Below, piece by piece: positions 1,395 through 59,073 of a DNA stretch of 64,000 nucleotides. The stretch's first letter is position 1. Every line of letters begins with the position of its first letter. The position numbers and the translations under genes were made by a program. The notes below the pieces were generated by a model that saw nothing but the letters and a program-made list of their open reading frames with translations, was not told where the DNA came from and did not search any database. Source of the DNA: Candidatus Uhrbacteria bacterium RIFOXYB12_FULL_58_10 (GTDB taxonomy: Bacteria; Patescibacteriota; Patescibacteriia; UBA9934; GWF2-40-263); contig CALRHL010000002.1 in the NCBI GenBank assembly GCA_943359455.1, positions 7,665 through 71,664 on the forward strand. Reading direction: 5' to 3'.

Positions 1395-1396
1395 TT

Positions 1397-3314: not shown

Positions 3315-3350
3315 AAAACCGTCTTGGTAAATCTAGACGGTTTTCTTTTT
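3315..3350. terminator. Bidirectional Rho-independent terminator
   Basis: AAAACCGTCT-loop-AGACGGTTTTCTTTTT. Confidence 0.6.
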
Positions 3351-31694: not shown

Positions 31695-32498
31695 ACTGCC
31701 CAGTTCTGTATGGATCTCTCCGTTCTCATCATCGGTTATAAAAACCATCGCCTTGTGCGGCAGACACTCAAGGGGATTCTTCGTGTTGCACCGGTCTTGT
31801 CCTATGAAGTGATTGTCGTAGAAAACGATCCATCGGGGACAACGACGAAAATGTGCACGGAGTTTCCGACGGTAAAAGTAATTGATCATCGAAAAAATAT
31901 CGGGTTTGGAAACGGAATGAATTTGGGGATTAAGGAGTCACAAGGTCGATACATTTTAGTGTTCAATCCAGATGTCATTGTTTTGCCGGGGGCGTTTGAA
32001 GAGCTCGTTCGTTATCTTGATGAGCATAAAGATGTTGGAATGGTCGGTCCACAGCTGCACAATCCAGATGGGACGCTACAGTACAGTTGTTACAAGTTTA
32101 TGGAGCCTAAAACGGTTCTCTATCGACGCCTTCCTTTTATCCGTCGACTAAAAAGTGTTCGTCAACATCTCGATGCGTATGTGATGGCTGACTGGGATCA
32201 TGCACAAACAAGAGAGGTCGACTATCTCCTCGGTGCCGCAATGCTTATTCGTCGAGAAGTGCTCGACCAAGTTGGGGGATTCGATCCAGCGTATTTTATG
32301 TACTTCGAAGATCAAGATCTGTGTCGCCGTTTCTGGAATGCAGGATGGAAAGTCATCTACCATCCCACGTCAAAACTCATTCACTATCACCGCCGTGAAA
32401 CCGCAGACGGCGGATTTCTCCAACAACTCTTTCATCCCCTCACGCGCATTCAAATCAAAAGTGCGTTATACTATTTTAAGAAACATAAAAAAGTGTGA
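31689..32498 (+). CDS. Glycosyltransferase family 2
   Basis: GT2 motifs (VVENDPSG, DVIVLPG, YFEDQDLC). Probable start at MDLSVLIIGY (31710). Confidence 0.8.
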   Translation: MVTAQFCMDLSVLIIGYKNHRLVRQTLKGILRVAPVLSYEVIVVENDPSGTTTKMCTEFPTVKVIDHRKNIGFGNGMNLGIKESQGRYILVFNPDVIVLPGAFEELVRYLDEHKDVGMVGPQLHNPDGTLQYSCYKFMEPKTVLYRRLPFIRRLKSVRQHLDAYVMADWDHAQTREVDYLLGAAMLIRREVLDQVGGFDPAYFMYFEDQDLCRRFWNAGWKVIYHPTSKLIHYHRRETADGGFLQQLFHPLTRIQIKSALYYFKKHKKV

Positions 32499-34528
32499 GT
32501 CACTCCATCAATTTTCTTCATCAAATCGAACCAGAAAAGATACATCGCGCGCATCAAAAACGGCGGATGTTTCATTTTGCTTGGATGGGGGTTGTCGTTC
32601 TTTTCATTGCTTGGCTTCTCCTGCTTCTTTTTGCTTCTGGACAGGTGATCGCCGCATCGCTTGATGGACGAGATGCTCTTGTTCGGGCGCGGGAGTCAGC
32701 CATGAAACTTGATTTTGAAAGGGCTTCGACGGAATTAGCTGAAGCAGGTGATCAGTTTAGTTCCGCAGAGCGTGGATTCGTGTTGCTTTCGAGTGCAAAG
32801 GTTATCCCATGGGTTTCGAATCAGGTGAATGCGATTGAAACGCTCATTGTTTCTGGAACGCGTATTATCGACGCGTTGCAATCGATCGTGGATCTTGGTG
32901 CGGAACTTGTTCGATTGGCTGGGTTTACGATGCAGGAATTGAATGATATGTCAGAAGGGATTCTTCCTACGGCGACCTTTGATGATCTTTCAAGTGAAAC
33001 AAAACAGGCGGTTCTTGAGCGTCTCGCTGCTGCGGCTCCCGATCTGCAATTGCTTTCTGCTCAGATCGCGATTGCTCGTTCAGACGTTGAACAGATTCAC
33101 GCTTCAGATTTGATCGGACCTCTTGCAGACATTCTCATTCCACTTGATGAAAAGCTTGCACAAGCACAAGAAATGATTCGTACACTTTCTATCGTTTCCG
33201 AACTGCTTCCAGAACTTGCGGGACTTGGAGAGGAGCGCACACACCTTGTGTTGCTTTTGAACAATACAGAATTGCGACCAGGTGGAGGATTTATCGGAAC
33301 GTTTGGTGTATTGAAAATGCTGAACGGAGATATTACTGTTCTCGAAACAGGTGATTCTTATGCGATCGATGGACTTGCGGAAATAGCAGGGTCGTATCAG
33401 CAAGATCCACCCGCACCACTTGGACGATACAATGCAACGAGCAATTGGTTTTTTCGCGATGCCAACTGGTCTCCAGACTTTGCGGTGAGTGCACAGGAAG
33501 CACTTCGCCTGTATGGACTCGAACTCGCGTCTGTCACACCAGAAACACGAGCAGTCGCTGGTGTTTCATCGCAAACGTTTGATGGGGTTATTGGATTGAC
33601 GCCAAATATTATTCAAGCACTGCTTGGAGTAACAGGTCCAATTACAATAGGAAGCCAAACGTTTTCTGCGGACAATGTAACGGACAAGCTCGAGTATCAA
33701 GTAGAAGTTCAGTACATTGGAGATGGTGTCCCTGAACATCAGCGCAAGGAAATCATTGCGGATCTCATGAATGAATTAAAAACAAGACTGTTTTCGCTTT
33801 CTCTCACAGATGCATCTCGACTGATCTCTGTTTTCGAAACGCTCATTCAAGAAAAACAACTCGTCTTCATGAGTGGAAACCAGGATGTTGAGGACACGCT
33901 TACAAAAGTAGGATGGGGAGGTCGTATTGTGCCATCAACAGGTGACCTTCAACTTCTTGTGGATGCAAATCTTGCGAGTCTAAAATCAGATCCAAAAGTT
34001 TCACGAGCGATGCGGTACGAGATTTTTAAAAATACGAGTGGAGAATATGTTGGTCGGACAACCATTCGCTATACGCACACAGGGTCATTTGATTGGAAAA
34101 CAACTCGGTATCGAACGTACACGCGATTGTACGTTCCAGATGGATCAGAGCTTGTAAATGTGGAAGGTTCCATGCTCAATGACTCGCTTCATAATCCAAC
34201 AGGTGCCAAAGGACCAGTGGATGTTGCGAACGACCTTGGACTTACCTCGTTTGGAACGTTCATTTCTATCGAGCCAGGGGAAAGTCGTTTGCTGACATTT
34301 GAATATCTCCTCGCTCCAGAAGTTGTTACACAGATTCAGAACGGGATGTATGAACTCACTGTCCTTAAACAAATTGGCGCGCAAAATAATCAGTTGACGC
34401 TCGACCTTGATTTTGATAAGAATGTCATGCACGCAGAGATTCCAGAAGATCGAGGAGAATGGGGAGATGATGTGTATCGGTTGAATACAAAAGTTGATCA
34501 AGACCTGAGTTTCGAGATAGGCCTGTAG
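32495..34528 (+). CDS. DUF4012 domain membrane protein (cell-envelope associated, common in CPR next to glycosyltransferases)
   Basis: N-terminal TM, 677 aa, architecture consistent with DUF4012 from memory (moderate certainty). Confidence 0.55.
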   Translation: MSHSINFLHQIEPEKIHRAHQKRRMFHFAWMGVVVLFIAWLLLLLFASGQVIAASLDGRDALVRARESAMKLDFERASTELAEAGDQFSSAERGFVLLSSAKVIPWVSNQVNAIETLIVSGTRIIDALQSIVDLGAELVRLAGFTMQELNDMSEGILPTATFDDLSSETKQAVLERLAAAAPDLQLLSAQIAIARSDVEQIHASDLIGPLADILIPLDEKLAQAQEMIRTLSIVSELLPELAGLGEERTHLVLLLNNTELRPGGGFIGTFGVLKMLNGDITVLETGDSYAIDGLAEIAGSYQQDPPAPLGRYNATSNWFFRDANWSPDFAVSAQEALRLYGLELASVTPETRAVAGVSSQTFDGVIGLTPNIIQALLGVTGPITIGSQTFSADNVTDKLEYQVEVQYIGDGVPEHQRKEIIADLMNELKTRLFSLSLTDASRLISVFETLIQEKQLVFMSGNQDVEDTLTKVGWGGRIVPSTGDLQLLVDANLASLKSDPKVSRAMRYEIFKNTSGEYVGRTTIRYTHTGSFDWKTTRYRTYTRLYVPDGSELVNVEGSMLNDSLHNPTGAKGPVDVANDLGLTSFGTFISIEPGESRLLTFEYLLAPEVVTQIQNGMYELTVLKQIGAQNNQLTLDLDFDKNVMHAEIPEDRGEWGDDVYRLNTKVDQDLSFEIGL

Positions 34529-34596: not shown

Positions 34597-35601
34597 ATGT
34601 TCCAAAAGAAAATCGCTATCGACCTTGGTACGACCTCTGTCCTCGTTTATGTCCCGAAACGAGGTATTATTATCAATGAACCATCTGTAGTTGCGGTGTC
34701 GTATGCGGACAAGAAAGTATTGGCAGTGGGGAAGGAAGCAAAAGACATGATTGGTCGCACACCAGACACGATTGTTGCTCGTCGACCACTGAAAGACGGC
34801 GTCATTGCCGATTACCGAACAACCGAAGCAATGCTTCGTTATTTTATTAATAAAGCATTAGGAGGAGTACGTTTGTTTCGTCCTGAAGTGATGGTTGCGG
34901 TCCCTGGTGGAATTACTTCAACAGAACGTCGTGCAGTTATCGACGCGACACTTTCCGCTGGAGCTAAAGCCGCGTACATCATCAAAGAACCAATCGTTGC
35001 CGCGATCGGCGCAAACATTCCAATCGGCTCTCCGTCTGGTCACATGATTATCGACATTGGTGGTGGAACATCCGAAATGGCCGTCATCTCACTCGGTGGA
35101 ATAGTGGCGTCTGAGTCTGTTCGCATCGGGGGCGTAAAACTCGATGCCGCGATTTCCGAATACGTTCGTCGCAAGTACGGTCTCGCGATTGGAGAACGAA
35201 CCGCCGAAGATATCAAAATTCAAATCGGTTCGGCGATGTACATGCCGGACAAACTTTTCATGCAAATTAAAGGACGAGACATGATTACAGGCCTACCAAA
35301 AATCGTCGAAGTCTCATCCGACGACGTCACGACCGCCATCCAACACGAACTCGACGGTATTATCGCCACCGTAAAAGAAGTGCTCAACAAAACCCCACCA
35401 GAACTGTCTGCAGACGTCATGGACAAAGGCATCATGCTCTCTGGTGGCTCGTCTCAACTCAGAAATCTTGATACACTTATCGCCGAAGCCACCGGCGTCC
35501 CAACATTCGTCGCCGAAGATCCACAAATGTGTGTGGCAAAAGGAACCGGCATCGCACTTGAGAATTTGGAAGCGTACAAGAGATCGATTTTTACGAGTTA
35601 G
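34597..35601 (+). CDS. mreB: Rod shape-determining protein MreB
   Basis: IAIDLGTTSVLVY phosphate-1 motif, actin-fold motifs throughout, 334 aa. Confidence 0.92.
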   Translation: MFQKKIAIDLGTTSVLVYVPKRGIIINEPSVVAVSYADKKVLAVGKEAKDMIGRTPDTIVARRPLKDGVIADYRTTEAMLRYFINKALGGVRLFRPEVMVAVPGGITSTERRAVIDATLSAGAKAAYIIKEPIVAAIGANIPIGSPSGHMIIDIGGGTSEMAVISLGGIVASESVRIGGVKLDAAISEYVRRKYGLAIGERTAEDIKIQIGSAMYMPDKLFMQIKGRDMITGLPKIVEVSSDDVTTAIQHELDGIIATVKEVLNKTPPELSADVMDKGIMLSGGSSQLRNLDTLIAEATGVPTFVAEDPQMCVAKGTGIALENLEAYKRSIFTS

Positions 35602-35613: not shown

Positions 35614-35886
35614 ATGGGGGATTTTTCACAACGAGATACAGGACACACGGTGTTCGATGCGAGAGCGCAAGCAACTCGTCCTCTTGATGTTTTTGGGATC
35701 CATGAAAATCCACCGAAGGCACGTACACCGCAGGAAGTCGCACGACTAAAAGAACGCATTGTTTTTATTGCTCGCGTGTTTGCGAGACAATATAAAATGG
35801 AGCTCTACCCATCGCCAAGTGGTGGATGGGCGTGTGGAGTGGATGAGAGCGTTTATCCAAAAATTGAAGCATATATTAAAGGATAG
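35614..35886 (+). CDS. 90-aa ORF in frame with the downstream vWA gene, separated only by a TAG at 35884-35886
   Basis: Same frame as 35965..37935. The 78 nt after the TAG are open and encode TDVLGLTTEDLQPRRLYYDIKDIEGK before the listed Met. Confidence 0.4.
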   Translation: MGDFSQRDTGHTVFDARAQATRPLDVFGIHENPPKARTPQEVARLKERIVFIARVFARQYKMELYPSPSGGWACGVDESVYPKIEAYIKG

Positions 35887-35964
35887 ACGGATGTATTAGG
35901 TTTAACGACAGAAGACCTTCAACCGCGACGACTGTATTACGATATCAAGGATATTGAAGGGAAG

Positions 35965-37935
35965 ATGTCGGAGGATGAAGCCATTGGTGTCATTCGGCAC
36001 GAAGTAGGACATGCGAATCACACCGATTATCGGTTGTTTTTTGAAGGTCAACGTTTCGCACAACAAGAAGGATCCATGCCAAGTGCATGGGCATTTGTGT
36101 GGAATTCGCTCGAAGACCCATGGGTGAATAATCGTGAAATTGCCGGATCTGATGCGGTGCGAGAAAGTTTGTCTGCGTTGTATCGAAAGTGGCTTCCGGA
36201 AACACGCGCGTTTATTCATACGCAAACGCCATTGCGTCAACTTGGTCTTTGCGTGATTCATTATTGGTTGACAGGTGAACCTATTGCTGAAATTCAAGAT
36301 AAAAAGGTGTTGGAAATTTTTGAAAAGATTCGTTCTGCGGCGGATGCGTATATCGCAGCGGAGACCGCAGAGAAATCGCACAAAGTGATGCAAGAACAGA
36401 TCTGGCCAGCAGTAAAGCCACTCGTTGACGAGGCGCAAAAACAGGAAGAGATGAAACAGAAGATGCGAGAGATGGGTGGTGAGGGACAGGGAGGAGCGCA
36501 AGGTGCCGTGCAAGGCGCGATTGATAAACTTCGCAACATGCTTGGGCTTGGTGGATCGAAACCTGCTCCATCGTCTGGACAAACACCCGGAGGTGAGTCA
36601 CTTCAACAAGCTGTTCGAGATGAACTGAATCGGCAAAAAAACTCGAACACGGAGGCACGGCAAAAACTTTCGCAGGAAGGTTCTGCGCAAGGACGCATGG
36701 ATGATGAGATTGACCTAAGCGCACTTCCTAAAGATTTGCGAGAACAACTTGAACAGGCTATTCGTCAGCTGTCGGAAGCGGATCGGAAAAAATTAGAAGA
36801 TGCGGCGAAGAAATCACTCGACAAAAAAATGGCAAAGGCGGCAAATGAAAGTTTACCGACTGGTTTGAAGTTTGAAGAAGATCCAAAAACAGGGGAGCAA
36901 ACGCTCACCATGAAGCAGGAAGACAAGAAGGGGGGGGAAGCGATCAAGAAGGCGGTCGATGAGCATGTGGATGCGCAAGTGCAAGAAGAGCAGAAAAAAG
37001 CAGTGGAGGACGCTCGTGCAGATGAGGAACGGCTTGCACAGATTCGTGAGGAAGAAAAAAAGAAACGCGAGCGTGCCGAGATACAAAAGGCCGGGTTTGA
37101 TCCAGACAACGAGGAAGATCGCGAGCTCTATCGCGAGTTTCGCGCATTGGAGCTTTTCATGGAATCCGCGGTGCAACGATTTATGAAGGTTATGGAAGCC
37201 TATCTGCCAAAGCGCGGAGAGATGGTGCATGAAGGGGAATATTACACGGGGAGCAAGATAAATAAGCGGGCATTGTTAAAGCGGGCGCCGCTTGAGGATT
37301 ATCGGATATTTCGTCGTCGCGAACTGCGGGAATCAAACGATCCGAAACTGTTTGTGACACTGCTTATCGATAACAGCGGCTCCATGCAAGGACAAAAAAT
37401 GCAGGAGTCTCGCAAAACCGCGATCTTTTTCGCGCGCGTGCTTGCGAGGTTTGATATTCCGTTTGCCATCAAGGCATTCGGCGATCAGGTGGAAGAAGTG
37501 GTATCATTTGACGAAGGATGGGACGATCCAACCGTAAAAGCCAAACCACGTCTCATGCGAAAGACAAACGCGTCGGGCGGTTCCACCGACATGGCGTCCG
37601 GGCTATTGGAAACCATGAAAGAAATGAATTCTGCCAAACGCGAATATCCCGGATGTCACGGAGCGGTGATCGTGATCTCGGATAGCGGCGCAAATGCAGG
37701 CCCCATGGTCGGGCCCGCACTTGGCGAGTATGTATCGCGCATGCAAAAATCGCACACCATTTTGAATTTGTTGTTGAGCGGTTCCGCTTCCGACAAACAG
37801 GCCTCCGCCGTCATTTTCGGCGAACGACATGTCGCGGTTGCCGAAGATTTTCAAACGCTCCCAACCGAAGCGTTTCGACTCCTGCGCATCGTCTTACAAC
37901 GCATCCTTAAAACAAACATCCTCGAAACGTTTTAA
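35965..37935 (+). CDS. vWA (MIDAS) domain protein with N-terminal HExxHxxH zincin-like motif and a long charged low-complexity linker
   Basis: HEVGHANH at aa 12-19. E/K/Q-rich coiled/low-complexity middle. C-terminal vWA with intact MIDAS (LIDNSGSM ... SGGSTDM ... VISDSGANAG). Confidence 0.75.
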   Translation: MSEDEAIGVIRHEVGHANHTDYRLFFEGQRFAQQEGSMPSAWAFVWNSLEDPWVNNREIAGSDAVRESLSALYRKWLPETRAFIHTQTPLRQLGLCVIHYWLTGEPIAEIQDKKVLEIFEKIRSAADAYIAAETAEKSHKVMQEQIWPAVKPLVDEAQKQEEMKQKMREMGGEGQGGAQGAVQGAIDKLRNMLGLGGSKPAPSSGQTPGGESLQQAVRDELNRQKNSNTEARQKLSQEGSAQGRMDDEIDLSALPKDLREQLEQAIRQLSEADRKKLEDAAKKSLDKKMAKAANESLPTGLKFEEDPKTGEQTLTMKQEDKKGGEAIKKAVDEHVDAQVQEEQKKAVEDARADEERLAQIREEEKKKRERAEIQKAGFDPDNEEDRELYREFRALELFMESAVQRFMKVMEAYLPKRGEMVHEGEYYTGSKINKRALLKRAPLEDYRIFRRRELRESNDPKLFVTLLIDNSGSMQGQKMQESRKTAIFFARVLARFDIPFAIKAFGDQVEEVVSFDEGWDDPTVKAKPRLMRKTNASGGSTDMASGLLETMKEMNSAKREYPGCHGAVIVISDSGANAGPMVGPALGEYVSRMQKSHTILNLLLSGSASDKQASAVIFGERHVAVAEDFQTLPTEAFRLLRIVLQRILKTNILETF

Positions 37936-37942
37936 TATTCGT

Positions 37943-40900
37943 ATGCCAGACCCAGCCCGTGGACAAACACCTCCCCAGGACCAGGAACCGGTTCGCGACC
38001 GGGATGCGGTTGAAGTTAAAATCACCGTCCAACCACCAGAGGTGTTTGAAGGAAACGAAAAGGCAATCACCTACGATATCGCCGTCACCGATAAATTCGT
38101 TCTCGCCTATCAGTTGCGTGATCAGTTTTTTCAGTACGTGCTTTATGACGCAACTGGGAAGCCAGTCAAAGACGAGTTTCCCTCGGGTTTTTTTGAAAAG
38201 TTTTATACATCGAAAGTGCTGGAAATAGCTCAAGGTTCAATGAGAGGACTGGGGTCCATCTATCCATCACATCAGAATCTAAATGAAGTGAGTTACAAAT
38301 CAATCAATATTTTTATTAAAAAAATATTTCCTAGTTTTTCGGATGAACAGATACGTTTTTTGATAAAAAGATTTGATTCACGATTTCCTAATGGTTACCA
38401 ATGCAACACAGACGTTGCGTCTGATCGTAATTTCATCCTATTTTATCCTCAAGTTTCAATTTCTTCGGATTCAACTCGAAAAGTATTTGTCCTGTCTGAT
38501 GGTACAAATGCCGTAAGCTATCCAACAGAAGAAAAAGGGGTTGCGATAAATCCAAAAAAAATGGATGAGGGATGTTATCCCTTTAAGCTCGATGCAAGCC
38601 CGATTGGGGAGGCTGCGGCGGTAAAGGAATTTTTAACAACCACGCGCGGGACGCCAGTTCCTGGAACGGATGTTGCCGCGAGTTGCGAGCGTGGAGTGTT
38701 TAATATTGTGAATGTGAAAACGGGGGATCGGTTGTTTTCTGATTCTGCGGTTGGTTTTGTGTTTGATCGGGTGACGGATGGAGTCTTGTATTATCTTGAT
38801 CAAGGAACGAATCAAGTTTGCAAAATGGATGCAAAAAAACTGACGCTTGGAATGGCGCCGGATGTGGAGAGGACTGTTTTACCGTTTCAGGGGATCGTGA
38901 AAGATTTTACTTTTGATCAGAACGGGAATTTTTTTCTTGTGCTCGTTGAGGTGGCGGGGAAATCAACGCTCAAGGTTTTGGAAAAAGATACCATGCGCGT
39001 GGCGTATGAACTTGAGGGGGTGAAATCCACGATGGATTTGGATAGCGTTGGGAATCTGTATTTTATTGATGAGAAGGATCGTCTCCGTTTGGCAAATACG
39101 AATTTTGCGGAATACCCGAAAGGCGGACTTGAAGGAGCGCGTGCGAAACGGACGGAAAAGTTACGGTTATTACGAGAGCGATTGGAAAAGGGGATTAATA
39201 TTAAAAAGACAACCCCGGCCGCGGATGAGGAAACCGCGCTGATCGATGAGCTGAAACAAAAACTGGATGGGATTTTTGGGACGGCGATTCAAGACGCGAC
39301 GACAACCGACGAACTGAATGCGATCGGGGCGCAGATGGAATCAATGGCAAAAGAGGATGAATGGAAGGCGTATCCTTCGGTATTTGACAGGGTAAAAGAT
39401 CGGTTGGTTGCTCGCGACACGCAGATGAAAACAGATCGACTGGACACATTGGCCGTCGAAGCAGAGACCCTGCTTGATTCTGTGTCAGGACCAGACCAAT
39501 TGATGGATCTTGATCGGATCGTATCGGAATTACGGGCGACTCGTCGGACGACTCCACTGCGCGACGCGAAGGCTCGCAAGGCGGTTGACGAACGATTGAA
39601 ACAGATCGAAATGCGTCAGGCAGAAGTGATTGCGCGCGAGCGAAAAACGATTCAAGATTTGCTCCCGTCGTTGTTTGATGAATGGAGCGCCGCTGTTCGT
39701 GAATCGGCGACACGCGAAGAGCTGACCGAAATGCAAGGCTCGCAGGAAGCGCTCCGACTGGAAGGAGCATTCAGTTTGCTTGGTCGCGAGACTGCTTCCG
39801 AATGGAAAGGGAAGAGACAAGAAGTGATCGCGCGAAGAGAAACGGAATTGCGCTCAGCGGAAATGCGCGAGGAAGAACAGCGTCGGGTGGAGCAAGCCGA
39901 GCGGGTGGAGCAGGCTCGAGAACTTCTGCGCGAGATTGAATCTGCGTTTGACACGCAGGTGACTGATCCGCGCGTGATCGATCGCTGGCTTTCTGGAAAC
40001 CCGCTTGTCAAGCGGTTTCGTGCGGTTGTGGTCGGACTTCCTGATGATTTGCGGCGCGATGAAGATCAACGGTTTGAAACATGGCTGAAGGAGAAGCGAC
40101 GTGATTTTATTCATCGCGACACTCTGCACATTCCCAAACATGGGGAAGAAGTCGATTTTGGGGAGGCAAAATTTCCGGTGTTTCATGCTCCCAAAACCGT
40201 GTGGCGACCAAAGATCGAATCCATTGCCGAAGGAAGCGCGTTCGGTCGGCTCGTGTTCGAAGATTCGTTTGGTCGTCGGTTCGAACCAGCGGTTGGCGCG
40301 GTGCCGATCGATGAGTTTAACGAAGACACGCAGGCAACGATTCGCGCCTTCGAACAAAACGCTCGGACATTTTTCGACGCGCTCAAACGAGAAGTTCCGC
40401 GGTTTGACGAACGGTGGGTGCTCACTCCGCATTTTCGATCAGAACTTTCCGGCATCGCGCGGTTGTTCAAAACTCAAATGGAAAATCAGGAAAAAATTTT
40501 GATTTTGGAAGGGGAAGCAGGCGTGGGAAAAAATGTGCTCATTGATATGTTTGCGCATTTTACCAATCGCGAAGTGTTCACCTTCTCTTGCAATTTTCAG
40601 ACGGAAAAGGAAGATCTCACATACGCGTTCAAATTTGAACCATCGCGTGGAACGTACACAGTGGACTCGCGACTGATCACCGCGCTTCAAACTCCTGGTT
40701 GTGTGATCATGCTTGATGAAATCAACACCCTTCCGCCTGGCGTCACCAAAATGCTCAATCCATTATTCGATTATCGACGCTGTCTGAATTTACCAGACGG
40801 TCGCGTGATTAAAACGCATCCAAGCGTTTTGCTTGTCGGGGCCATGAACCCACAAAATTATCTCGGGGTTAAGCCGCTTGCACAGGAAGTAAAGTCGCGC

Positions 40901-41344
40901 GCGCGGTTTAAGCCAGTGGATTATCCACCAGAGCGTCGCAATAATGCCTTTGCCCATGATGAAGCGGCGGTGCTCGCGAAATACATCCCCGGACTTTCCG
41001 ATCTTTCCGCGGAGGCATTTGCCGCGCTTTGGGATCTCACGATCAATAACAATCGCACGGCTGGCGGTGATCGTCATGCAACCGCTCCACGGGTGGAAGC
41101 ATGCAAAAAATTGCGCGAAATTATAAAAACCGCTTCTCGTGTTCGTGATGCCTATCGAGCATTTCGCACGGGTGCATCCAATGACCCGATCGAGTTTGTA
41201 TTTTCCATGCGCGAAACAACCGACATTGCGCTTGAAATTGCGCATCAGCCTAACTTGAAAAAAGCGATTCAGAATGTTGTTCTTCCAAAAATTGGCGATC
41301 CGGAGGAACGAGAACGCGTGAAGGTGATAATTGATAATGCGTAA
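37943..41344 (+). CDS. Giant MoxR-like AAA_5 ATPase (1133 aa): N-terminal beta-propeller-like region, ~400-aa coiled coil, C-terminal AAA_5 module
   Basis: AAA_5 core at about aa 855-1010: Walker A GEAGVGKN (non-canonical N after K), Walker B VIMLDEIN, sensor-1 LLVGAMNP. The listed ORF starts at 37829 and overlaps the upstream gene; the Met at 37943 lies 8 nt after the vWA stop. Confidence 0.75.
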   Translation: MPDPARGQTPPQDQEPVRDRDAVEVKITVQPPEVFEGNEKAITYDIAVTDKFVLAYQLRDQFFQYVLYDATGKPVKDEFPSGFFEKFYTSKVLEIAQGSMRGLGSIYPSHQNLNEVSYKSINIFIKKIFPSFSDEQIRFLIKRFDSRFPNGYQCNTDVASDRNFILFYPQVSISSDSTRKVFVLSDGTNAVSYPTEEKGVAINPKKMDEGCYPFKLDASPIGEAAAVKEFLTTTRGTPVPGTDVAASCERGVFNIVNVKTGDRLFSDSAVGFVFDRVTDGVLYYLDQGTNQVCKMDAKKLTLGMAPDVERTVLPFQGIVKDFTFDQNGNFFLVLVEVAGKSTLKVLEKDTMRVAYELEGVKSTMDLDSVGNLYFIDEKDRLRLANTNFAEYPKGGLEGARAKRTEKLRLLRERLEKGINIKKTTPAADEETALIDELKQKLDGIFGTAIQDATTTDELNAIGAQMESMAKEDEWKAYPSVFDRVKDRLVARDTQMKTDRLDTLAVEAETLLDSVSGPDQLMDLDRIVSELRATRRTTPLRDAKARKAVDERLKQIEMRQAEVIARERKTIQDLLPSLFDEWSAAVRESATREELTEMQGSQEALRLEGAFSLLGRETASEWKGKRQEVIARRETELRSAEMREEEQRRVEQAERVEQARELLREIESAFDTQVTDPRVIDRWLSGNPLVKRFRAVVVGLPDDLRRDEDQRFETWLKEKRRDFIHRDTLHIPKHGEEVDFGEAKFPVFHAPKTVWRPKIESIAEGSAFGRLVFEDSFGRRFEPAVGAVPIDEFNEDTQATIRAFEQNARTFFDALKREVPRFDERWVLTPHFRSELSGIARLFKTQMENQEKILILEGEAGVGKNVLIDMFAHFTNREVFTFSCNFQTEKEDLTYAFKFEPSRGTYTVDSRLITALQTPGCVIMLDEINTLPPGVTKMLNPLFDYRRCLNLPDGRVIKTHPSVLLVGAMNPQNYLGVKPLAQEVKSRARFKPVDYPPERRNNAFAHDEAAVLAKYIPGLSDLSAEAFAALWDLTINNNRTAGGDRHATAPRVEACKKLREIIKTASRVRDAYRAFRTGASNDPIEFVFSMRETTDIALEIAHQPNLKKAIQNVVLPKIGDPEERERVKVIIDNA

Positions 41345-41347: not shown

Positions 41348-42418
41348 ATGTCTACGATTGCGATTGATGAGAGTTCGACGAAAAAGGTAAATCGTTCTGG
41401 GGTTGAATGGTATGCGTACCATCTCATTGAGGCGATTAAGAAACAGTCGCTTGCAGATGGCGAGAAGGTTGTTTTTTATTCTTCGGAGAATTTGAAATGG
41501 TGGTTGCCGTTTGGATGGATGAAGGGGAGAGTGAGTTGGGAAATGTGGCGACGGAAGCCAGATGTTCTTTTCGTGCCTGCGCAAGGACTCCCATTGTGTG
41601 GGAAGCGAGTGGGGGTTGTCCATGACGTGGGATTTCGGCGTGTTGCGTCGGTGTATGAATCAGGTGATAGACGACGACAGGAAAGAGAGATGAAACGCAT
41701 GGTGAAACGTGCGGCGAAGATTTTTTGTGTTTCGGAGTTTACGAAGAGAGAGATGATTGAGCTGTTTAAGGTGAGTCAGGATCGGATCGTCGTTGCTCCG
41801 AATGCGGTGGATACCAATGTGTACCGTCCGATGGACGAATCTGCGATTGCTCCGGTGTTACAGAAATATCGTCTTGGACGGCATTTTTTCTTGTATGTTG
41901 GACGCATGGATGCAAAGAAAAATGTGAAGACCATTATCCGCGCGTTTGAGCTGTTCAAAGCAAGTCGCGGGCTTGGAGATCCGTTTGAACTCGTCCTTGT
42001 TGGCTCACCCGGATTTAAATTTTCTGAAATCAAAACGTATGTTGAACGGTCAAATGCGAAACAAGCGATCAAGTATCTTGGCTATCTTCCTGAAACAGAA
42101 AATGCTGCTCTTATGAATGCAGCGACCGCGTTTCTTTTTCCATCTTGGTACGAAGGGTTTGGTGTTCCTCCCCTTGAAGCCGCCGCATGCGGCGCGCCAC
42201 TCATTATTTCTGACATCGGTGCGCATCGAGAGGTTTTGCAAGACGCGGCGATTTTTGTGAAACCAACTGAACCAGAAGCTTGGGGAAAAATCCTTATGCA
42301 GTTCGCGGCAGATCCTTCAATCGGACAAGCCTTGCGACCGAAAGGATTTGAGCGTGCCGCAGCATATTCCTGGGATGCGACTGCAAAGATTGTTTTGGAA
42401 ACGTTGCGGCGGGTGTAG
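41348..42418 (+). CDS. Glycosyltransferase family 1/4 (GT-B)
   Basis: C-terminal EGFGVPPLEAAACGAPLI motif of GT4 enzymes. Confidence 0.8.
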   Translation: MSTIAIDESSTKKVNRSGVEWYAYHLIEAIKKQSLADGEKVVFYSSENLKWWLPFGWMKGRVSWEMWRRKPDVLFVPAQGLPLCGKRVGVVHDVGFRRVASVYESGDRRRQEREMKRMVKRAAKIFCVSEFTKREMIELFKVSQDRIVVAPNAVDTNVYRPMDESAIAPVLQKYRLGRHFFLYVGRMDAKKNVKTIIRAFELFKASRGLGDPFELVLVGSPGFKFSEIKTYVERSNAKQAIKYLGYLPETENAALMNAATAFLFPSWYEGFGVPPLEAAACGAPLIISDIGAHREVLQDAAIFVKPTEPEAWGKILMQFAADPSIGQALRPKGFERAAAYSWDATAKIVLETLRRV

Positions 42419-44895: not shown

Positions 44896-45312
44896 TGAGG
44901 GGAGAGACTCAGTGGGTGTAACCACGAGGTTTATCCCACATGTTCGGAGGCAAGGGATGCAGTGACTTCTCTTGCGAGGAGTGTGCACCATGGTTGTCGG
45001 GCGTATGGGGGGAGTCAGACCTAGGTCCGAGTCCACACATTTGGCAACCCCCGATTCAGTGTTTTAAAGCACCGAACCGGTTTGCTCTCTCCTCCGAGCA
45101 TGTGAGAACCTCCTCACTACGAATTTTTTCTGAGATTTTTTCTGCGAATAACGAATCGGCTACACATCTTACAAATAGCTACGTATTACTACGAATGGTT
45201 CGTTGAAATTTGTTGCTATTTGTATGATATGTGGGAGATTTGTAGTTCGCAGGAAAAATTCGTAGTGAGGGGGTGGGGAAGAGCTCGTGTTACGAGATTC
45301 CCCAGAGTCGGT

Positions 45313-45621
45313 TTACGCCGCGTACTGTCGCGATGCACGAGTCGTGTCTTTCCACGACTTGGTTTGCTGGGGCGACGGCAAGAACCAGTTCGAAACGGTC
45401 ATGCTTTCGGTAACCGTGTTGCCACCTGCGATGACCCCGCTGTCGTAGTGCTCGACGTACGACCGACGCTGCGGCTCAGGCACGAGCTTCACTTCGATTT
45501 CACCGGGACGTGAGTCGCTCTGACAGATCATCGTTCTCGAACGTGCGACGATCGAGCCGTCACCGATCTTCAGAGGACGGCACGAGCCGTCGAAACCGCG
45601 CCAAGAGCTGATTCGGGACAT
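45313..45621 (-). CDS. Hypothetical protein (102 aa), high-GC island
   Basis: AGGAG 4 nt upstream of ATG at 45621. The longer listed ORF 45313..45966 probably extends spuriously upstream. Confidence 0.45.
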   Translation of the reverse strand: MSRISSWRGFDGSCRPLKIGDGSIVARSRTMICQSDSRPGEIEVKLVPEPQRRSYVEHYDSGVIAGGNTVTESMTVSNWFLPSPQQTKSWKDTTRASRQYAA

Positions 45622-46049
45622 GAATCTCCTTTCGCCTATCGAGAGGCGAGTTGTTGGGTGAGGGTGGAAGAAATGATCGTGATGGGAACGTAGAACAACG
45701 CTCCGATCATGAGAGAGAACACGACCGCGATTCCCGCGAACGTGAGGATGGGCTATTTCAGCGATGCCTTTGCGTCCCGGAAATATGGGGAGCGGTGTGG
45801 TGTGGCAGTCGCCTTGCTCTGCACAGCGTGATTGCTTTGCAGTACTGACTAATGGAGTTCGCTTTCTGTCGCGACCTCCTCGAAGGGTTGGATAATTGAT
45901 CCAGCGCTTTGAGGAAGTCTGGGTTACTAGCGGAGTTCCGCGTTCACCCAGCAGTCCATTTGTCATTGACCTCCATGACGAGGAGCATTCTCTTGAACCA
46001 CGTGCGAGACGTGATCACGGGGCTTATGCACAAACCCGTTCGAGAAGAA

Positions 46050-47207
46050 TTACTTCTTCTTGCCTTTGGCCTTGTCCGCTTGACGATCACGCTTCGATTT
46101 GGAACCGCCGGATTTCTCCGACTGCACCATTCCGGGCGTGACTTCACGCGCCTTCTTGAAGGCTGCGTCCAGTCCACCGAAACCTTCGAGCTTTCGCCCG
46201 TCGTCTCGCGGCTTGGCCGGAGCCTGCACTTGCGGTGCGGCCTTCGGCGGATCCTGACGCTTGGGAGCGTTCGAGTCCGTCCTCCCGGCGATCTTGGCTT
46301 CGCGGAAGAGTCCGCCGATCTTTCCGCCACCTTCGATGATCTTGTTGATGTTTGCTTCGGACTCAGCTTTCGCCTTGGCCGCCATCGCCTTGATCGCCTC
46401 GAGCAGGGGGAACCACCTGTAGCTTGTGTCTCGACTCGCGAGTTGGCAACCCGCGACGGAGATGAGTTCCTCACGGGTCGGATCGCGGTCACCGATCCCG
46501 AGCTTCTGCTGGACCGGGAAGATCGGTGGAACGAACGCATCCACCAACCGGATCTGGTGTGTCTGGCATCCTTTCGCCGTACACGTCACCATCTCCTCCG
46601 GCGGTTGCTCCTTCTTTGGGGGAGCCGAAGGAGGCTTTCCACCACCACCGTTCTGGGTTCGCGACGCAAGCGCCGCGATCGCCAGACTCCGGACGGCATC
46701 TTGGATGCTCGGCCGGCTCGGGGTCGGAGCGGGTTGCTCGATCGAGGCCACGGTGACCACTTCTGCGACCACCACCGATTCCTCCGGCATTTCGATCGGG
46801 GCCGAAGCTTCCGCCTCGTCCTCGATGAAACGTGCCGGGGCCTGTTCGGATTCGAGGAGCTGGACGCCAGTTTCCTCGGCTGCGGCCTCGATCACGATCT
46901 CGGCCACGGGGGCCTCGATCCTGGCCGCCGCCGCCATTTGCTCGAGCCGATCGGATGCCGCCTTGCGGTCGGCGCGATACACTTCGAGCATGGATTGAAT
47001 TTCCTCGATCGGAATCTCGAGAAGCTTCGTCCTTCCGCGGATCTCCTCGTACTTGACGAGCAGACCGGCTTTCTTGAACTCACTCCGAAGCGCGGCTCGA
47101 TCCTGCCGTACGTTGCCGTGTGCACTGAGTGCAACGACTCCGCTACGGATTTCTTCGCGACGCTCTTCGACACTGCTCGCAGAGCGAGCTTCAGATTCGT
47201 GCAACAT
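46050..47207 (-). CDS. Hypothetical protein (385 aa) with lysine-rich C-terminal tail, high-GC island
   Basis: AGGAG 6 nt upstream of ATG at 47207. Plus-strand ORFs over the same DNA are R/L-rich antisense artefacts. Ends ...KSKRDRQADKAKGKKK. Confidence 0.6.
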   Translation of the reverse strand: MLHESEARSASSVEERREEIRSGVVALSAHGNVRQDRAALRSEFKKAGLLVKYEEIRGRTKLLEIPIEEIQSMLEVYRADRKAASDRLEQMAAAARIEAPVAEIVIEAAAEETGVQLLESEQAPARFIEDEAEASAPIEMPEESVVVAEVVTVASIEQPAPTPSRPSIQDAVRSLAIAALASRTQNGGGGKPPSAPPKKEQPPEEMVTCTAKGCQTHQIRLVDAFVPPIFPVQQKLGIGDRDPTREELISVAGCQLASRDTSYRWFPLLEAIKAMAAKAKAESEANINKIIEGGGKIGGLFREAKIAGRTDSNAPKRQDPPKAAPQVQAPAKPRDDGRKLEGFGGLDAAFKKAREVTPGMVQSEKSGGSKSKRDRQADKAKGKKK

Positions 47208-47685
47208 GGTGGACTCCTACGGGGGGCACTCGTTTGGACAGTTGTTCCCGAGCTTGGGATTCAGCTCGCACTCGCGAGCTTACAGAACTGTGGCGCTTCG
47301 TCCTTGACAGCGCTTCTTTGAAACACGAGCGTTCAGCTCCTGCATCAGAGAAGCGCGGGGACTCCTTCACCCTCTTCCGCCGTCAATACTCCCACACGAC
47401 TCTTGCGAGCCAGGAGGATTTTCGACGGAGGAAGAGGATGCTGATCAGAGTTGGGATCAGCTCCAAGGGTTTATCGTTCTTGCGAACATTCGGTACCCCT
47501 TACCGTTTGATGGCTTCAGTTTCGCGTGCCATCGGTGAGCTTGGAGACAGTCTCTTACGAGACGGAATCATGCTCGACGCAGCGTGTCCGGGTTACAACC
47601 CTACGATCACGACTTTGCCAGCGGAAGGAGCTCGTCTCCCTCTACGCTGGCCTGACTCGGTTCCGAGAGAACGGTTACGAAGGTT

Positions 47686-48111
47686 CTACCCCTCCGTCCC
47701 CGTCGACTCGACCACCTGCTCGGCGGGGGCGCTCGTCGCCACATTCGCCGCCTTGGCCGCGTCCTGTTCCGCCTTCCACTTCTGGTCGGCGGCGCGGGCT
47801 TCCTCGAGGCGTCCGCGGAACTTTGCGAGGTCTTCCTGCGCGGTACGGAGCTGTTCGCAGACCTGGTACTTCGTGACACGAATGCCACGGTTTTGGCAGT
47901 CCGAGAAGTTCTCGCGCGCGATCCGTTCCTCGTTGCCACAACGGCTTTCGAGGGCCGAGTCGAGGATGCTCGTGAAGAGGATCACAGACTCGGGGGAGCC
48001 CACGATTTCCTTCCGCGAAAGGTTCACCAGGACGCCACCGAAGTGACGAATGGCGGCCTCGACAACATTGCGCTCGTTCTTGCCAATCCAGACAATTTGG
48101 GTCGTTTCCAT
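47686..48111 (-). CDS. Hypothetical protein (141 aa), high-GC island
   Basis: AGGAG 8 nt upstream of ATG at 48111 (METTQIVWIGKNERN...). Confidence 0.5.
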   Translation of the reverse strand: METTQIVWIGKNERNVVEAAIRHFGGVLVNLSRKEIVGSPESVILFTSILDSALESRCGNEERIARENFSDCQNRGIRVTKYQVCEQLRTAQEDLAKFRGRLEEARAADQKWKAEQDAAKAANVATSAPAEQVVESTGTEG

Positions 48112-48738
48112 GGTGAAAGCTCCTGTAGTGGCGTAATCGACGGAGTGTCGAATAGTGGCCAGAGCGGGATGGATGCCTTTTACAGACATACATTCCGCTC
48201 TGGCCTACTTATCCTCACCAACCTAGAGGCGTGGTGAGACTCGGTTTCTAGACGTGCAAGCACGGTTCGAATCGAGTCTCTTGGATCCAGTTGGTATGCA
48301 CTGAGTTAGCCGAGGCCAAGGCAGTGCATTTAGGACCCACATCTTCCGCGGCCCGAGGGCGTAGGAAGAATGTTTATCTCTCTCCTCCAGGTTGCTAGGG
48401 ATAAGAAGTAGTTGGGGGGGGTGGAACAAAAAACCGGTTTCTGTACGTATCTAAAGAGAGACGTGTACAAAAACCGGTCTTTCTGCCGTTGGGCGCGGGC
48501 AGGCGCGTTCTCTCTCCCCATCAATTGTGAGAGCCACATGATCGCTTCGTACGATCAGGTAACCCACTGCAATCTATCGGAGAGTAATAGTATCATAATT
48601 TGGTGGAATTGTCAAGAGTGGAGTGTGGATTCTGTGCTAGGTTGACAGAAATATAAGTGTCAGGATGAGCTGGAATAGATAAGGTTTGAAGGGTCGGATG
48701 GTCGGAGGTTTAATGAGACGTGTTATAATCCTTCCGAT

Positions 48739-55731: not shown

Positions 55732-55854
55732 CACAAACACTGTAAAATTGTGAGGTGTTGGTGCGCAGCGAGCAGCGCAGTAAGGCGTACAAAGATGTAC
55801 GTCGTCGAGCAGCACAGCTGCAAACCAACAGATCGCAATTTTACAGTGTTTGTG
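55732..55854. repeat. Perfect 19-bp inverted repeat (CACAAACACTGTAAAATTG / CAATTTTACAGTGTTTGTG) enclosing ~85 nt, abutting the tRNA-Thr 5' end
   Basis: 19/19 complementarity. Inner GCGCAGCGAGCAGCGCAG-type repeats. Confidence 0.75.
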
Positions 55855-55929
55855 CCGTCATAGCTCAGTTGGTAGAGCGCATCCATGGTAAGGATGAGGT
55901 CATCGGTTCAATCCCGATTGACGGCTCCA
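55854..55929 (+). tRNA. tRNA-Thr (anticodon GGU), CCA encoded
   Basis: Manual fold: acceptor GCCGTCA/TGACGGC, D-arm GCTC...GAGC, anticodon stem CATCC/GGATG with loop ATGGTAA, T-arm ATCGG-TTCAATC-CCGAT. Confidence 0.85.
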
Positions 55930-55975
55930 AAAAGAACTCTCGCGAGAGGGTTCTTTTTATTTGTAAAGGTGATGC

Positions 55976-56479
55976 TCATATCTGTTCCTTCCACGATTCG
56001 TACGTTCCATTTTTTTTGAGGTTGTAGAAAACAAAACTTGCAACTGTGTTACCCCAACCTTCGCTTCCCTCGTTGTAGACCACCCCGTCATATCCTTGCT
56101 GCATCATAAAATCTGAGAACATGTATGCCCATGTCGGGGATGTAATGTTCGGACTCTTGAGTTTTACGCTACCCATCGTTCCGAGAAGAACACGTAAATC
56201 GATTGCAGATTCTTTCAGCGCTCTCTCGAGAAACGATACATAATCAATTTCTTGTGCATCAAATATTGCAGCGATATTGCCTTCACGTGGTTTTTTCTCA
56301 CGAAAATATTTCATGAAGGCAGTACGCCACGCCTCGGCAAGTTCATGCGGAAGGGGCGCATTAAACCCTTTTGCGTCTTTCCATCGGAGGTCTACTTCCG
56401 TGGAACAGCACATCGGGAGACCGTTCAAATTCCTCTCGCGACAATGTGCGAGGATCGCGCTCGCCGAGCATTCGTTCAC
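55976..56479 (-). CDS. Hypothetical protein
   Basis: The C-terminal ~110 aa look protein-like. Start uncertain (listed GTG start). An upstream ATG at 56534 is in another frame. Confidence 0.4.
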   Translation of the reverse strand: MNECSASAILAHCRERNLNGLPMCCSTEVDLRWKDAKGFNAPLPHELAEAWRTAFMKYFREKKPREGNIAAIFDAQEIDYVSFLERALKESAIDLRVLLGTMGSVKLKSPNITSPTWAYMFSDFMMQQGYDGVVYNEGSEGWGNTVASFVFYNLKKNGTYESWKEQI

Positions 56480-57083
56480 CGACAGCTTCGCGTGCCTCCA
56501 GTGGGATTACCTCATCCGTTTCGATTGATTTCATAGGTTTTTCTTGTGTTACATGTTTTCTCTGGCAATAAACCGTTTTATGTTGTTTTCAACAAGGCAA
56601 GAAATTAATCCATCGTTAATTTAACGAAGAAACTTTTCGTATGGATATTTATAAGAAAAGTTTAGCATCTAACTTAAAATATATAAAACCATTCTCAAAT
56701 TTCGGTGCTGTTAGTTATTGTGATGAAGAAGAAACAATGGTTTGATGTATCGTGCAGTATAGAAGAAAGGATTTTACAACTTTTCTATGCTCAACTTAGC
56801 CAATATTTAAGATAGTTTCTAAATTGATTGTGAGAAATCAGGTTATTTCATGAATCGAGACACATCGCAATCGGTAATCAGTTTTGTACTCTAACTTCAA
56901 TATATCAGCGCATTAGTACGACTTATTAAAAGTTATCGGCCAAACTTTGAATAAGCGAATCCATCAGAAAAGTTTTCTCACATTCTTCCCAAGCACACAG
57001 CGGCGTCGATGGAGAAAAACCCTCTGATATCAGATGATTTAGCTCATCGGGTGCGCTCTTGCTTTTGTAATGGACAAATCCCC

Positions 57084-57112
57084 TCTAAAAAAACACTCCG
57101 TATGGAGTGTTT
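57084..57112. terminator. Rho-independent terminator overlapping the stop of the minus-strand gene (AAACACTCC-GTAT-GGAGTGTTT)
   Basis: Same stem sequence as the terminator at 22961-22990. Confidence 0.65.
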
Positions 57113-57647
57113 AGATGCCGAGCTGTTCGAAGCCTTCTTCTTCGAGCTGCATGATTTCATCTGAGGTGAATGGACGCATGGAGCTTGGGGGTTGCCAGTT
57201 TCGCTCCGTGGCAACGGTTACAAGCATGTAGGCCGCGAGTGCATCAAATGCGGTCATGCGCGATTCGTTTTCGAATCGACGACAGGTGTGGTACAGTGCC
57301 GTCTTGATGACCAAGTAACGCTTGATCAACGCGTCAGGATTTTTCGACTTCAAGAGGAAATCCTGGAGTGGAGTGGCGACTGCCATGAATCCGTCGATCG
57401 CAATGAGCCAGCCCGCGACGAGCAATGCGACGTCTTCGTAGTTTTTTACGTTTGCTGATCCAATCGAACCGATTGAGATAGCAATGACCTGCGTGCGTTC
57501 TTCGGGCGGCAAAGACATCGTTTCCATGATCGATTCAGGAGTCATGGGACATGCAGGATTGAGCGTTGAGTACATCTTTTCTCCATGAGTCGTGTCACGA
57601 AATGTGACAAAGAAGCATAGCAGATAAAAGAGTATCTGTCTAGACAT
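57111..57647 (-). CDS. Hypothetical protein
   Basis: 178-aa ORF; probable start at MYSTLNP (57575). Hydrophobic segments present; no family recognised. Confidence 0.5.
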   Translation of the reverse strand: MSRQILFYLLCFFVTFRDTTHGEKMYSTLNPACPMTPESIMETMSLPPEERTQVIAISIGSIGSANVKNYEDVALLVAGWLIAIDGFMAVATPLQDFLLKSKNPDALIKRYLVIKTALYHTCRRFENESRMTAFDALAAYMLVTVATERNWQPPSSMRPFTSDEIMQLEEEGFEQLGI

Positions 57648-57685
57648 TCAAATGTAGATCATTTATAATCGCGTTTGCAAGCCAT

Positions 57686-57771
57686 GGGCAGATACTCAAG
57701 CGGTCAACGAGGAGAGACTGTAAATCTCTTGGCTCACGCCTTCGAAGGTTCGAATCCTTCTCTGCCCACCA
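57686..57771 (+). tRNA. tRNA-Tyr (anticodon GUA), class II long variable arm, CCA encoded
   Basis: Acceptor GGGCAGA/TCTGCCC, anticodon stem AGAGA/TCTCT with loop CTGTAAA, variable stem-loop GGC-TCAC-GCC, T-arm GAAGG-TTCGAAT-CCTTC. TTTATAAT -10 just upstream. Confidence 0.85.
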
Positions 57772-57779
57772 TCCCACTT

Positions 57780-58005
57780 CGCTCTTCGAGCTACGTTAGG
57801 GATGTATCCCACAGAACAGGCGAAGTGGGATGCCCCTAACGAAGCTTGAGCAAAGCGAAGTGGGGCTCTGTTTCTATCCTTCGCTCTTCGAGCTACGTTA
57901 GGGATGTATCCCACAGAACAGGCGAAGTGGGATGCCCCTAACGAAGCTTGAGCAAAGCGAAGTGGGGCTCTGTTCCTATCCTTCGCTCCTCAATCACCAG
58001 AAAAA
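57780..58005. repeat. 102-bp tandem repeat, about 2.2 copies, between tRNA-Tyr and tRNA-Thr
   Basis: Unit CGCTCTTCGAGCTACGTTAGGGATGTATCCCACAGAACAGGCGAAGTGGGATGCCCCTAACGAAGCTTGAGCAAAGCGAAGTGGGGCTCTGTTTCTATCCTT. Copies at 57780-57881 and 57882-57983 differ by 1 nt. Internal hairpins ATCCCAC/GTGGGAT and CGTTAGGG/CCCTAACG. Confidence 0.85.
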
Positions 58006-58008
58006 CCC

Positions 58009-58083
58009 GCCGCTTTAGCTCAGTGGTAGAGCAACACTTTTGTAAAGTGAAGGTCCCCGGTTCGAGCCCGGGAAGCGGCTCCA
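58009..58083 (+). tRNA. tRNA-Thr (anticodon UGU), CCA encoded
   Basis: Acceptor GCCGCTT/AAGCGGC, D-arm GCTC-AGTGGTA-GAGC, anticodon loop TTTGTAA, T-arm CCCGG-TTCGAGC-CCGGG. One A.A mismatch at 27:43. Confidence 0.8.
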
Positions 58084-58142
58084 TTCGACTCCTTGACCAA
58101 TCTAGGCTGATTTGATACTGTTCTGGCATTGAAAAAACTATT

Positions 58143-58298
58143 ATGTCTCAAGATAACATCATTAAACTCGAATGCTCAACCTGTAAGAATGTTGGGTATA
58201 TGAGTCACAAGAATAAAAAGATGCTGAAGGAGCGTCTGGAGCTTAAGAAGTTTTGCAAGTGGTGTAAAACGCATATTCCTCACAAGGAAACGAAGTAA
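58143..58298 (+). CDS. rpmG: 50S ribosomal protein L33
   Basis: 51 aa MSQDNIIKLECSTCKNVGYMSHKNKKMLKERLELKKFCKWCKTHIPHKETK with the L33 zinc-ribbon pattern. Below the ORF-track size cutoff. Confidence 0.85.
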   Translation: MSQDNIIKLECSTCKNVGYMSHKNKKMLKERLELKKFCKWCKTHIPHKETK

Positions 58299-58322
58299 AA
58301 CCGCCTTTTGGCGGATTTTGCT
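58297..58322. terminator. Rho-independent bidirectional terminator (AAAACCGCC-TTTT-GGCGGATTTTG)
   Basis: Perfect 9-bp stem and T-tract. Serves rpmG and the convergent minus-strand gene. Confidence 0.7.
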
Positions 58323-58369
58323 TAAAAAAAGACCACGTGGCAACGCGACGTGGCAAGGAAGGGCGTGCG

Positions 58370-58921: not shown

Positions 58922-59073
58922 GTGCGTGACCTCATGACCGTTGTTTCAGAACGTGCTTCGAGCGGATCCCGAAAACACGAGGCGGAGTGTACCCTGCTTC
59001 TTGCGATGGGTCAAGATCGGTTTAAGCTGGCATGTTGGAACTACATAGGTTATGTGGTATACTTTGGTTTGAT

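Follow-up and report, generated by a model that had tools for sequence, protein, structure and literature searches.

Two genes on the + strand lie at positions 35614-41344 of the 64,000-nucleotide (nt) stretch of DNA from Candidatus Uhrbacteria bacterium RIFOXYB12_FULL_58_10 that was analysed here as a whole (the window). They form tightly packed, co-directional frames, gene 1 at 35614-37935 and gene 2 at 37943-41344, with a gap of 7 nt between the gene-1 stop and the gene-2 start. Gene 1 is predicted to encode a zincin-fold domain, a charged middle region and a von Willebrand factor A (vWA) domain with a metal ion-dependent adhesion site (MIDAS), and gene 2 a beta-propeller, a charged region and an ATPase module of the AAA_5 class. 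Our sequence comparisons indicate that the pair is a conserved and rare AAA_5-vWA cassette with a distinctive architecture and ATP site, which was previously unannotated. We rated this architecture as a variation on the known AAA_5-vWA theme, not as a separate kind of system.

Gene 2 (P0001) is a clean open reading frame (ORF) of 1133 amino acids (aa), as an earlier reading of the DNA made from its letters alone (the sequence-only reading) had stated, and its start is backed by the N-terminus of an ortholog (MPDPARGQ in the window versus MSDPTRGQ in the ortholog). Its N-terminal region, about residues 1-395 (37943-39127), had been described in that reading as carrying beta-propeller-like repeats. 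The AlphaFold2 model of residues 1-402 (predicted local distance difference test score, pLDDT, 81) was beta-rich with a helical insert at residues 89-160 and bore this out, predicting a 7-bladed WD40-type beta-propeller. The following E/R/L/A-rich region, residues 396-700 (39128-40042), contains 38% D/E/K/R and 6% Pro+Gly and is presumably helical. The sequence-only reading had proposed a coiled coil of about 400 aa at this place; the charged region was confirmed, but it is about 300 aa long, a hydrophobic-periodicity scan of residues 400-700 gave no sustained 3.5-residue heptad signal, and a conserved segment of about 130 aa lies behind it. This pre-AAA segment, residues 701-830 (40043-40432), carries the conserved blocks FGxxxFPVF and GxLVFxDxxGR and had no Pfam match. 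The AAA_5 module with its C-terminal lid occupies residues 831-1133 (40433-41341), with Arg986 encoded within 40886-40909. The Pfam AAA_5 profile matched residues 853-986 (E 2.1e-23; 83.3 bits versus a cut-off of 22), in agreement with the C-terminal AAA_5 module read from the letters, and a weak match to Sigma54_activat was also obtained in gene 2 (E 3e-4). By the AAA_5 match the gene-2 ATPase is assigned to the AAA_5 class (MoxR-type).

The N-terminal domain of gene 1 was modelled on residues 1-285 of an intact ortholog (pLDDT 86, predicted template modelling score 0.81), and the AlphaFold2 model predicts a zincin fold with HExxH on the active-site helix. HEVGHANH is found at gene-1 codons 129-136 (35998-36021), and in an alignment of 14 full-length homologs sharing 32-49% identity the residues H129, E130 and H133 of the active-site motif HEVGH (35998-36012) were invariant. 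The extended motif HExxHxxH named in the sequence-only reading is present in the letters, but its third His is not conserved, being H, N or K in the homologs. A second motif, LEDPWVNN (36109-36132), contains the invariant residues E167, D168, W170, N172 and N173, and E167-D168 is a candidate third metal ligand of the gluzincin-like kind. No curated peptidase family was found for the zincin domain, Peptidase_M48 matching 4 of the 14 members at E 0.058-0.17, below the cut-off. DUF2201_N plus DUF2201 proteins combine a zincin with a vWA-like domain and adjoin MoxR ATPases; PF13203 and PF09967 were absent from all 14 members even at E up to 1. The middle region (36469-37293) varies in length within the family and shares 72.5% identity, with indels, with the closest ortholog. 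It is rich in E/K/A/Q, much as the linker of about 350 aa in the sequence-only reading had been, but it spans about 275 aa and holds conserved islands. On gene 1, Pfam profiles matched the C-terminal vWA domain only (VWA at E 1.9e-8, VWA_2, and CobT_C above its cut-off). This domain (37354-37863) has a complete MIDAS, as had been read from the letters, with DNSGS at 37369-37383, a Thr in GGSTDM at 37576-37593 and an Asp in SDSGAN at 37678-37695, and the MIDAS residues D580, S584, T652 and D684 were invariant among the 14 homologs.

Gene 1 had been read straight through as one gene, and this did not hold. Codon 91 is an in-frame TAG (35884-35886) that splits the frame into + strand ORFs of 90 aa (35614-35886) and 656 aa (35965-37935; P0004). 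The 5' fragment comprises 90 codons, ends at the TAG and covers the opening helix plus two strands of the zincin fold, while the 3' ORF holds the remaining zincin domain with HExxH, the charged middle and the vWA/MIDAS domain. Between them, codons 92-117 (35887-35964), which run from the TAG to the next ATG, encode the third strand of the zincin sheet in intact orthologs. The closest ortholog, P0003, encoded on a 7.4-kb contig from another sample (L002), is continuous over 767 aa and has CAA (Gln) at codon 91, two nucleotide changes away from TAG. Since the upstream mreB terminates with TAG (35599-35601), the codon is a real stop in the window genome; the mreB ortholog ends likewise, and TAG recoding was rejected. 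The same TAG occurs in a separately assembled Logan contig (L001), which may derive from related read data, and a recent assembly error at this codon is unlikely.

Both fragments of gene 1 appear to be constrained. The 5' fragment is 88% identical to the L002 ortholog, with a proportion of nonsynonymous differences (pN) of 0.078 and of synonymous differences (pS) of 0.68, and the rest of the zincin domain beyond the restart ATG is likewise 88% identical. In contrast with these 88% flanks, codons 92-117 show 69% identity (8 differences in 26 residues, which are small numbers), and within them the nearly invariant D96 is replaced by Gly in the window copy. Other close pairs in the family show similar conservation in this segment and in its N-terminal flank. 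These comparisons fit a split gene with continuing constraint on both fragments, the stretch between them, codons 92-117, probably being no longer translated in the window genome. The nonsense codon appears to be genuine and of some age. In the structure model the third strand of the zincin sheet falls within the lost stretch, and the peptidase of the window genome is therefore probably impaired or works as two chains, with the vWA and ATPase parts intact.

The gene-2 family was recovered by an exhaustive HMMER search over 1.84 billion cluster representatives, of which 112 matched at E<1e-30; about 45 of these 112 were full-length (1100-1200 aa). The 90%-identity clusters of the family have 1-2 members each. 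Word-index searches were flooded by low-complexity charged regions and returned 2 matches with gene 2, 18 with gene 1 and a single one with the zincin profile. Scans of genome, viral and metagenome contig collections gave weak matches to the AAA core only and no true members, and no family members were found in IMG/VR viral contigs. The taxon labels among members were 'Patescibacteria group bacterium' and 'Oligoflexia bacterium' only, the latter belonging to P0041, a close relative of the ATPase of locus L008, and the source names were only 'hypothetical protein', 'AAA family ATPase' or 'MoxR-like ATPase'. In Pfam, NCBIfam and PADLOC no family covers either full-length protein, the matches being to the AAA_5 and vWA cores, and sequence matches in the PDB were limited to the AAA core. 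The combination, which the sequence-only reading had not recognised, indeed matches no characterised pair, and strong homology over the full length to a characterised family, which that reading had named as grounds for rejection, was not found in these searches.

We examined nine loci (the window, L002, L004, L005, L006, L008, L010, L011 and L012). Each of them has a gene-1 homolog (740-1000 aa) directly upstream of its gene-2 homolog, with order and tight spacing kept. The flanking genes are otherwise unrelated between loci: mreB and glycosyltransferases; dnaG and sigma-70; Band_7 and a two-component system; coenzyme A biosynthesis genes; flgE and a helicase; Fic and MazE; or BacA and a GT4 glycosyltransferase. 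Neighbourhood conservation, proposed earlier as a check, was seen for the pair, and orthologs without the partner gene, also named beforehand as grounds for rejection, were not seen at any of these loci. DxSxS is present in 9/9 loci and HExxH in 8/9. The locus lacking HExxH, L010, encodes at 345-3338 a gene-1 homolog of 998 aa with RSEAGR for RHEVGH and IDRC for LEDPW and with an intact MIDAS (DNTIS). In L008 and L010, whose ATPases are of the GKD type described below, the pair lies beside a large helicase or an MTES_1575 (restriction-endonuclease-like) protein plus a periplasmic binding protein; L008 additionally carries flgE. A related but more distant family of about 1290 aa was observed at L009 (GCA_040960375.1, 3482-8777), with Walker A GHAGTGKD, Walker B NE and the ATPase gene first. 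The partner encoded downstream of this ATPase has a zincin-like domain, with DITTV in the place of HExxH, and behind it an acidic Gly-rich linker. From the L010 and L009-family sequences, the peptidase chemistry appears to be dispensable in some members.

The ATP site of gene 2 carries the three motifs that had been read from the letters, namely Walker A GEAGVGKN (40511-40534), Walker B VIMLDEIN (40703-40726) and sensor-1 LLVGAMNP (40829-40852, with Asn969), all on the + strand. The first departs from the canonical GxxGxGK[S/T]; GK[N/D] is a variant of the motif and not its absence. Whether the Asn after the Walker A Lys is conserved had been posed as a check, and among 34 full-length representatives this residue was N in 28 and D in 6, and never S or T. 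G860, G862, K863, E926, N928, N969 and R986 were invariant in the same set. We then compared the residue after the Lys with Walker B in 141 AAA segments from all matches of the exhaustive search. N was paired with DE in 70 segments, and D with NE in 36, with GE, IE or VE in 5 and with DE in 2; T was paired with DE in 16, in midasin-like multi-AAA proteins. Several independent events are implied, because the Walker B Asp is replaced differently (G, N, I or V) in separate subgroups. From these pairings we infer a joint role of the two positions, in Walker A and in Walker B, at the Mg2+ site, with a single carboxylate retained alongside a non-acidic residue. Since the post-Lys residue covaries reciprocally with the first Walker B acid, the ATP site appears to be rewired, not decayed or dead. 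There is a precedent for a residue other than Ser/Thr at this place in the sigma-54 activators, which are working AAA+ ATPases with Walker A GESGTGKE (PMC8871633). They differ from the present family in belonging to another AAA+ clade, in having no vWA partner, in keeping Walker B DE beside the Glu and in their role in transcription. A further protein, P0088 (2600 aa), is built from a unit repeated four times in tandem, which has an AAA_5 domain with Walker A GERGTGKN and, behind it, WD40 repeats; it could be another link between a GKN-type AAA_5 domain and a beta-propeller, and may be an assembly or gene-call artefact.

The substitution of Asn for the Mg-coordinating Ser/Thr, the nonsense codon in gene 1 and the apparently relaxed constraint on codons 92-117 could also be taken to mean that the ATPase is dead and the pair a passive scaffold, or that the window copy is a decaying pseudogene pair. 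We consider this highly improbable. The catalytic Glu, the sensor-1 Asn and the Arg are invariant and the reciprocal covariation of Walker A and B is unlike decay, while both gene-1 fragments and gene 2 remain open under purifying selection (pN ~0.08, pS at least 0.68) and the AAA module is 88% identical to its ortholog.

A patch of the gene-2 propeller, residues 77-235 (38171-38647), which spans the helical insert and adjacent blades, is hypervariable, with 38% identity and indels relative to the closest ortholog versus 82-88% in its flanks, and family-wide identity is 12-31% in the N-terminal region versus 37-64% in the AAA module. This variation speaks for a threat-sensing or conflict module, in which the fast-evolving propeller would sense an invader or host protein, the AAA_5-vWA pair would transduce the signal and the zincin would be the effector, set free once recognition occurs. 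Mechanistically such a module overlaps with the explanation that we prefer and differs from it by committing to a role in immunity or antagonism. The rare, patchy and portable occurrence of the cassette, the loss-of-function variants, the labels of its members as Patescibacteria and Oligoflexia, and some of the neighbours (Fic, MazE, the MTES_1575 restriction-endonuclease-like protein and a helicase) point in the same direction. Published precedents exist for MoxR-vWA modules with propeller sensors. The MoxR-vWA ternary conflict systems described by Kaur et al. (2020, PMC7159879) comprise VMAP, iSTAND, FtsH and beta-propeller types, and the recently reported Esr pathway of Actinobacteria combines a divergent propeller with MoxR-vWA sensing (PMC13622651). 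They share with the cassette a MoxR-class ATPase with a vWA partner, a variable propeller in the propeller types and, sometimes, a linked zincin, and in its hypervariable propeller joined to AAA_5-vWA the cassette resembles an Esr-type sensing pathway by analogy.

Other features of the cassette set it apart from these systems. The published propeller-type systems carry the propeller on the vWA protein or on a surface filament, whereas here it is fused to the ATPase. The vWA domain is C-terminal with no effector domains downstream, and where the conflict systems have a third component, the nine loci show no third conserved component and no effector swapping or diversification but a constant architecture, which leaves the pair outside the definition of a ternary conflict system. 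PADLOC returned only weak matches to the AAA core, no members were found in the IMG/VR viral contigs, and the window copy stands in a tight run from mreB to a GT4 glycosyltransferase, an arrangement conserved in L002. The link to vWA-MoxR conflict systems drawn in the sequence-only reading is retained for the shared theme, but none of their third components or architectures is present. A conflict role is possible, and we regard it as tentative.

Among PDB sequences, the closest single-domain matches to the AAA core were CbbQ (50.6 bits, E 1.9e-12), a single midasin AAA domain (43.5 bits) and NorQ (39.9 bits, E 3.4e-9), and on these scores the core is about equally distant from all three. NorQ/NorD, CbbQ/CbbO and CobS/CobT likewise place an AAA_5 ATPase beside a partner, here of about 770 aa, with a C-terminal vWA/MIDAS domain after a long linker. 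The pair could accordingly be seen as a maturation chaperone of the NorQ/NorD, CbbQ/CbbO, CoxD/CoxE or CobS/CobT type, which would insert metal into or remodel one enzyme or envelope complex and in which the zincin-like domain would be a metal-handling or structural module. The CbbQ and NorQ matches, the CobT_C match of the gene-1 vWA domain, the NorD-like layout of the partner (N-terminal domain, linker, C-terminal vWA) and the envelope genes found around the pair in the window, L002 and L012 (mreB, GT2, DUF4012, GT4 and BacA) are in its favour. However, no client enzyme gene is conserved beside the pair, whose neighbours differ in nearly every locus, and in the annotated neighbourhood of the window pair no Rubisco, NOR, CODH or CobN client genes were found. 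The gene-2 ATPase, with its propeller, helical stalk and pre-AAA segment, has 1133 aa versus about 270 aa in these systems and is four times as large as CbbQ or NorQ, its Walker A is GK[N/D], and its partner has an N-terminal zincin. A hypervariable propeller patch would also be unexpected for a fixed client, and we regard a dedicated maturation role as unlikely.

Midasin (Rea1/Mdn1) shares AAA_5 domains, a long charged linker and a MIDAS with the cassette and gave the lowest whole-protein E-value in the PDB. It was rejected as the specific closest relative: its E-values of 1e-25 to 1e-34 are sums over six AAA domains, the best of which reached 43.5 bits and so scored below CbbQ. Midasin has six tandem AAA domains and the MIDAS on the same chain, Walker A GKT and no zincin, whereas here a single AAA_5 domain is found and the MIDAS is on a neighbouring protein. 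Midasin substrates carry WD40 propellers. The combination of an AAA+ ring with an HExxH peptidase is also seen in FtsH-type proteases, as a functional analogy only. FtsH fuses both parts in one membrane protein, which belongs to the classical AAA clade and has an M41 peptidase, whereas the present pair is predicted to be two cytoplasmic proteins with an AAA_5 ATPase and a zincin outside assigned families.

In NorQD, the vWA domain inserts a finger into the pore of the hexamer, and the linker of the partner is remodelled by the ATPase (PMC13036017). By analogy with NorQ/NorD, CbbQ/CbbO and midasin, the gene-2 ATPase would form a ring that engages the gene-1 vWA domain, and ATP hydrolysis would pull on the long charged linker of gene 1. 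In this way the capture of a protein by the propeller or the MIDAS would be coupled to its cleavage or remodelling by the zincin, and the ATPase would control or position this tethered domain relative to the captured protein. We favour, at a probability of roughly 0.5, a self-contained two-gene AAA_5 plus vWA/MIDAS cassette that would work by this ring-pull mechanism in an accessory recognition-and-processing role rather than a housekeeping one. The accessory role is proposed because the cassette is rare, its neighbourhoods are unrelated, as for a portable unit, variants with a lost or split peptidase occur, and the propeller has a hypervariable patch.

Several points weigh against this reading. 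Ring formation, vWA docking and proteolysis are all analogies, and the placement of the ATPase in the MoxR class was made from its sequence. With the peptidase site lost in L010 and in the L009 family, the core output may be something other than proteolysis. The Walker counts are phylogenetically non-independent, the pairings of D with NE coming mostly from the one related family of about 1290 aa (GHAGTGKD). Between two close orthologs pS is about 0.7-0.8 (saturated), at which diversifying selection and relaxed constraint on the propeller patch are indistinguishable. A bolder form of the proposal is that the cassette represents an undescribed class of cytoplasmic surveillance or processing machine in bacteria living on or preying on other cells (the labelled members being Patescibacteria and Oligoflexia), in which a hypervariable propeller-AAA_5 protein would recognise a changing target and deploy a tethered zincin through its MIDAS partner, with the Mg carboxylate on Walker A or B; we hold this to be doubtful.

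AAA_5/MoxR-vWA pairs are widespread, and the mechanism is understood for few of them (NorQD, CbbQO and midasin). With a propeller on the motor and a protease fold on the vWA partner, recognition, force and output could be mapped in two proteins. The reciprocal Walker swap (GKN with DE versus GKD with NE) offers a natural experiment in compensation that bears on how Mg2+ is held in P-loop ATPases, and the split gene 1 is both a caution for annotation and a natural test of the need for the peptidase. Of the two members that carry a taxon label, one belongs to the ultra-small epibiotic bacteria and the other to a lineage including predators, for which 5.7 kb is a notable investment.

In the window, the pair directly follows mreB (34597-35601) and precedes a GT4 glycosyltransferase gene (41348-42418), and this tight co-directional run is also kept in L002. 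A Pfam match of the downstream glycosyltransferase to 'GT4-conflict' was dismissed as secondary (52 bits versus 102 for Glycos_transf_1). The neighbours of the pair comprise mreB, glycosyltransferases, a DUF4012 protein, a PD-(D/E)XK protein and TrmB. The DUF4012 protein is encoded upstream of mreB at 32495-34528, and a DUF5671 protein was observed at 1-454 of L005. DUF4012 and DUF5671 are common in Patescibacteria, which is consistent with, and no proof of, the assignment of the window to that group. At 45200-48200 of the window the G+C content rises to 0.55-0.66 versus about 0.46 elsewhere, and long ORFs overlap in several frames on both strands; in this segment no ORF had a Pfam match, and neither an Rfam match nor a tandem repeat was found. 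A tRNA cluster on the + strand at 55854-59809 of the window comprises Thr(GGT), Tyr(GTA), Thr(TGT) and Trp(CCA). An EF-Tu gene at 58.3-59.7 kb was considered and rejected, the ORFs between tRNA Thr(TGT) and tRNA Trp not being EF-Tu; one of them matches HTH_23.

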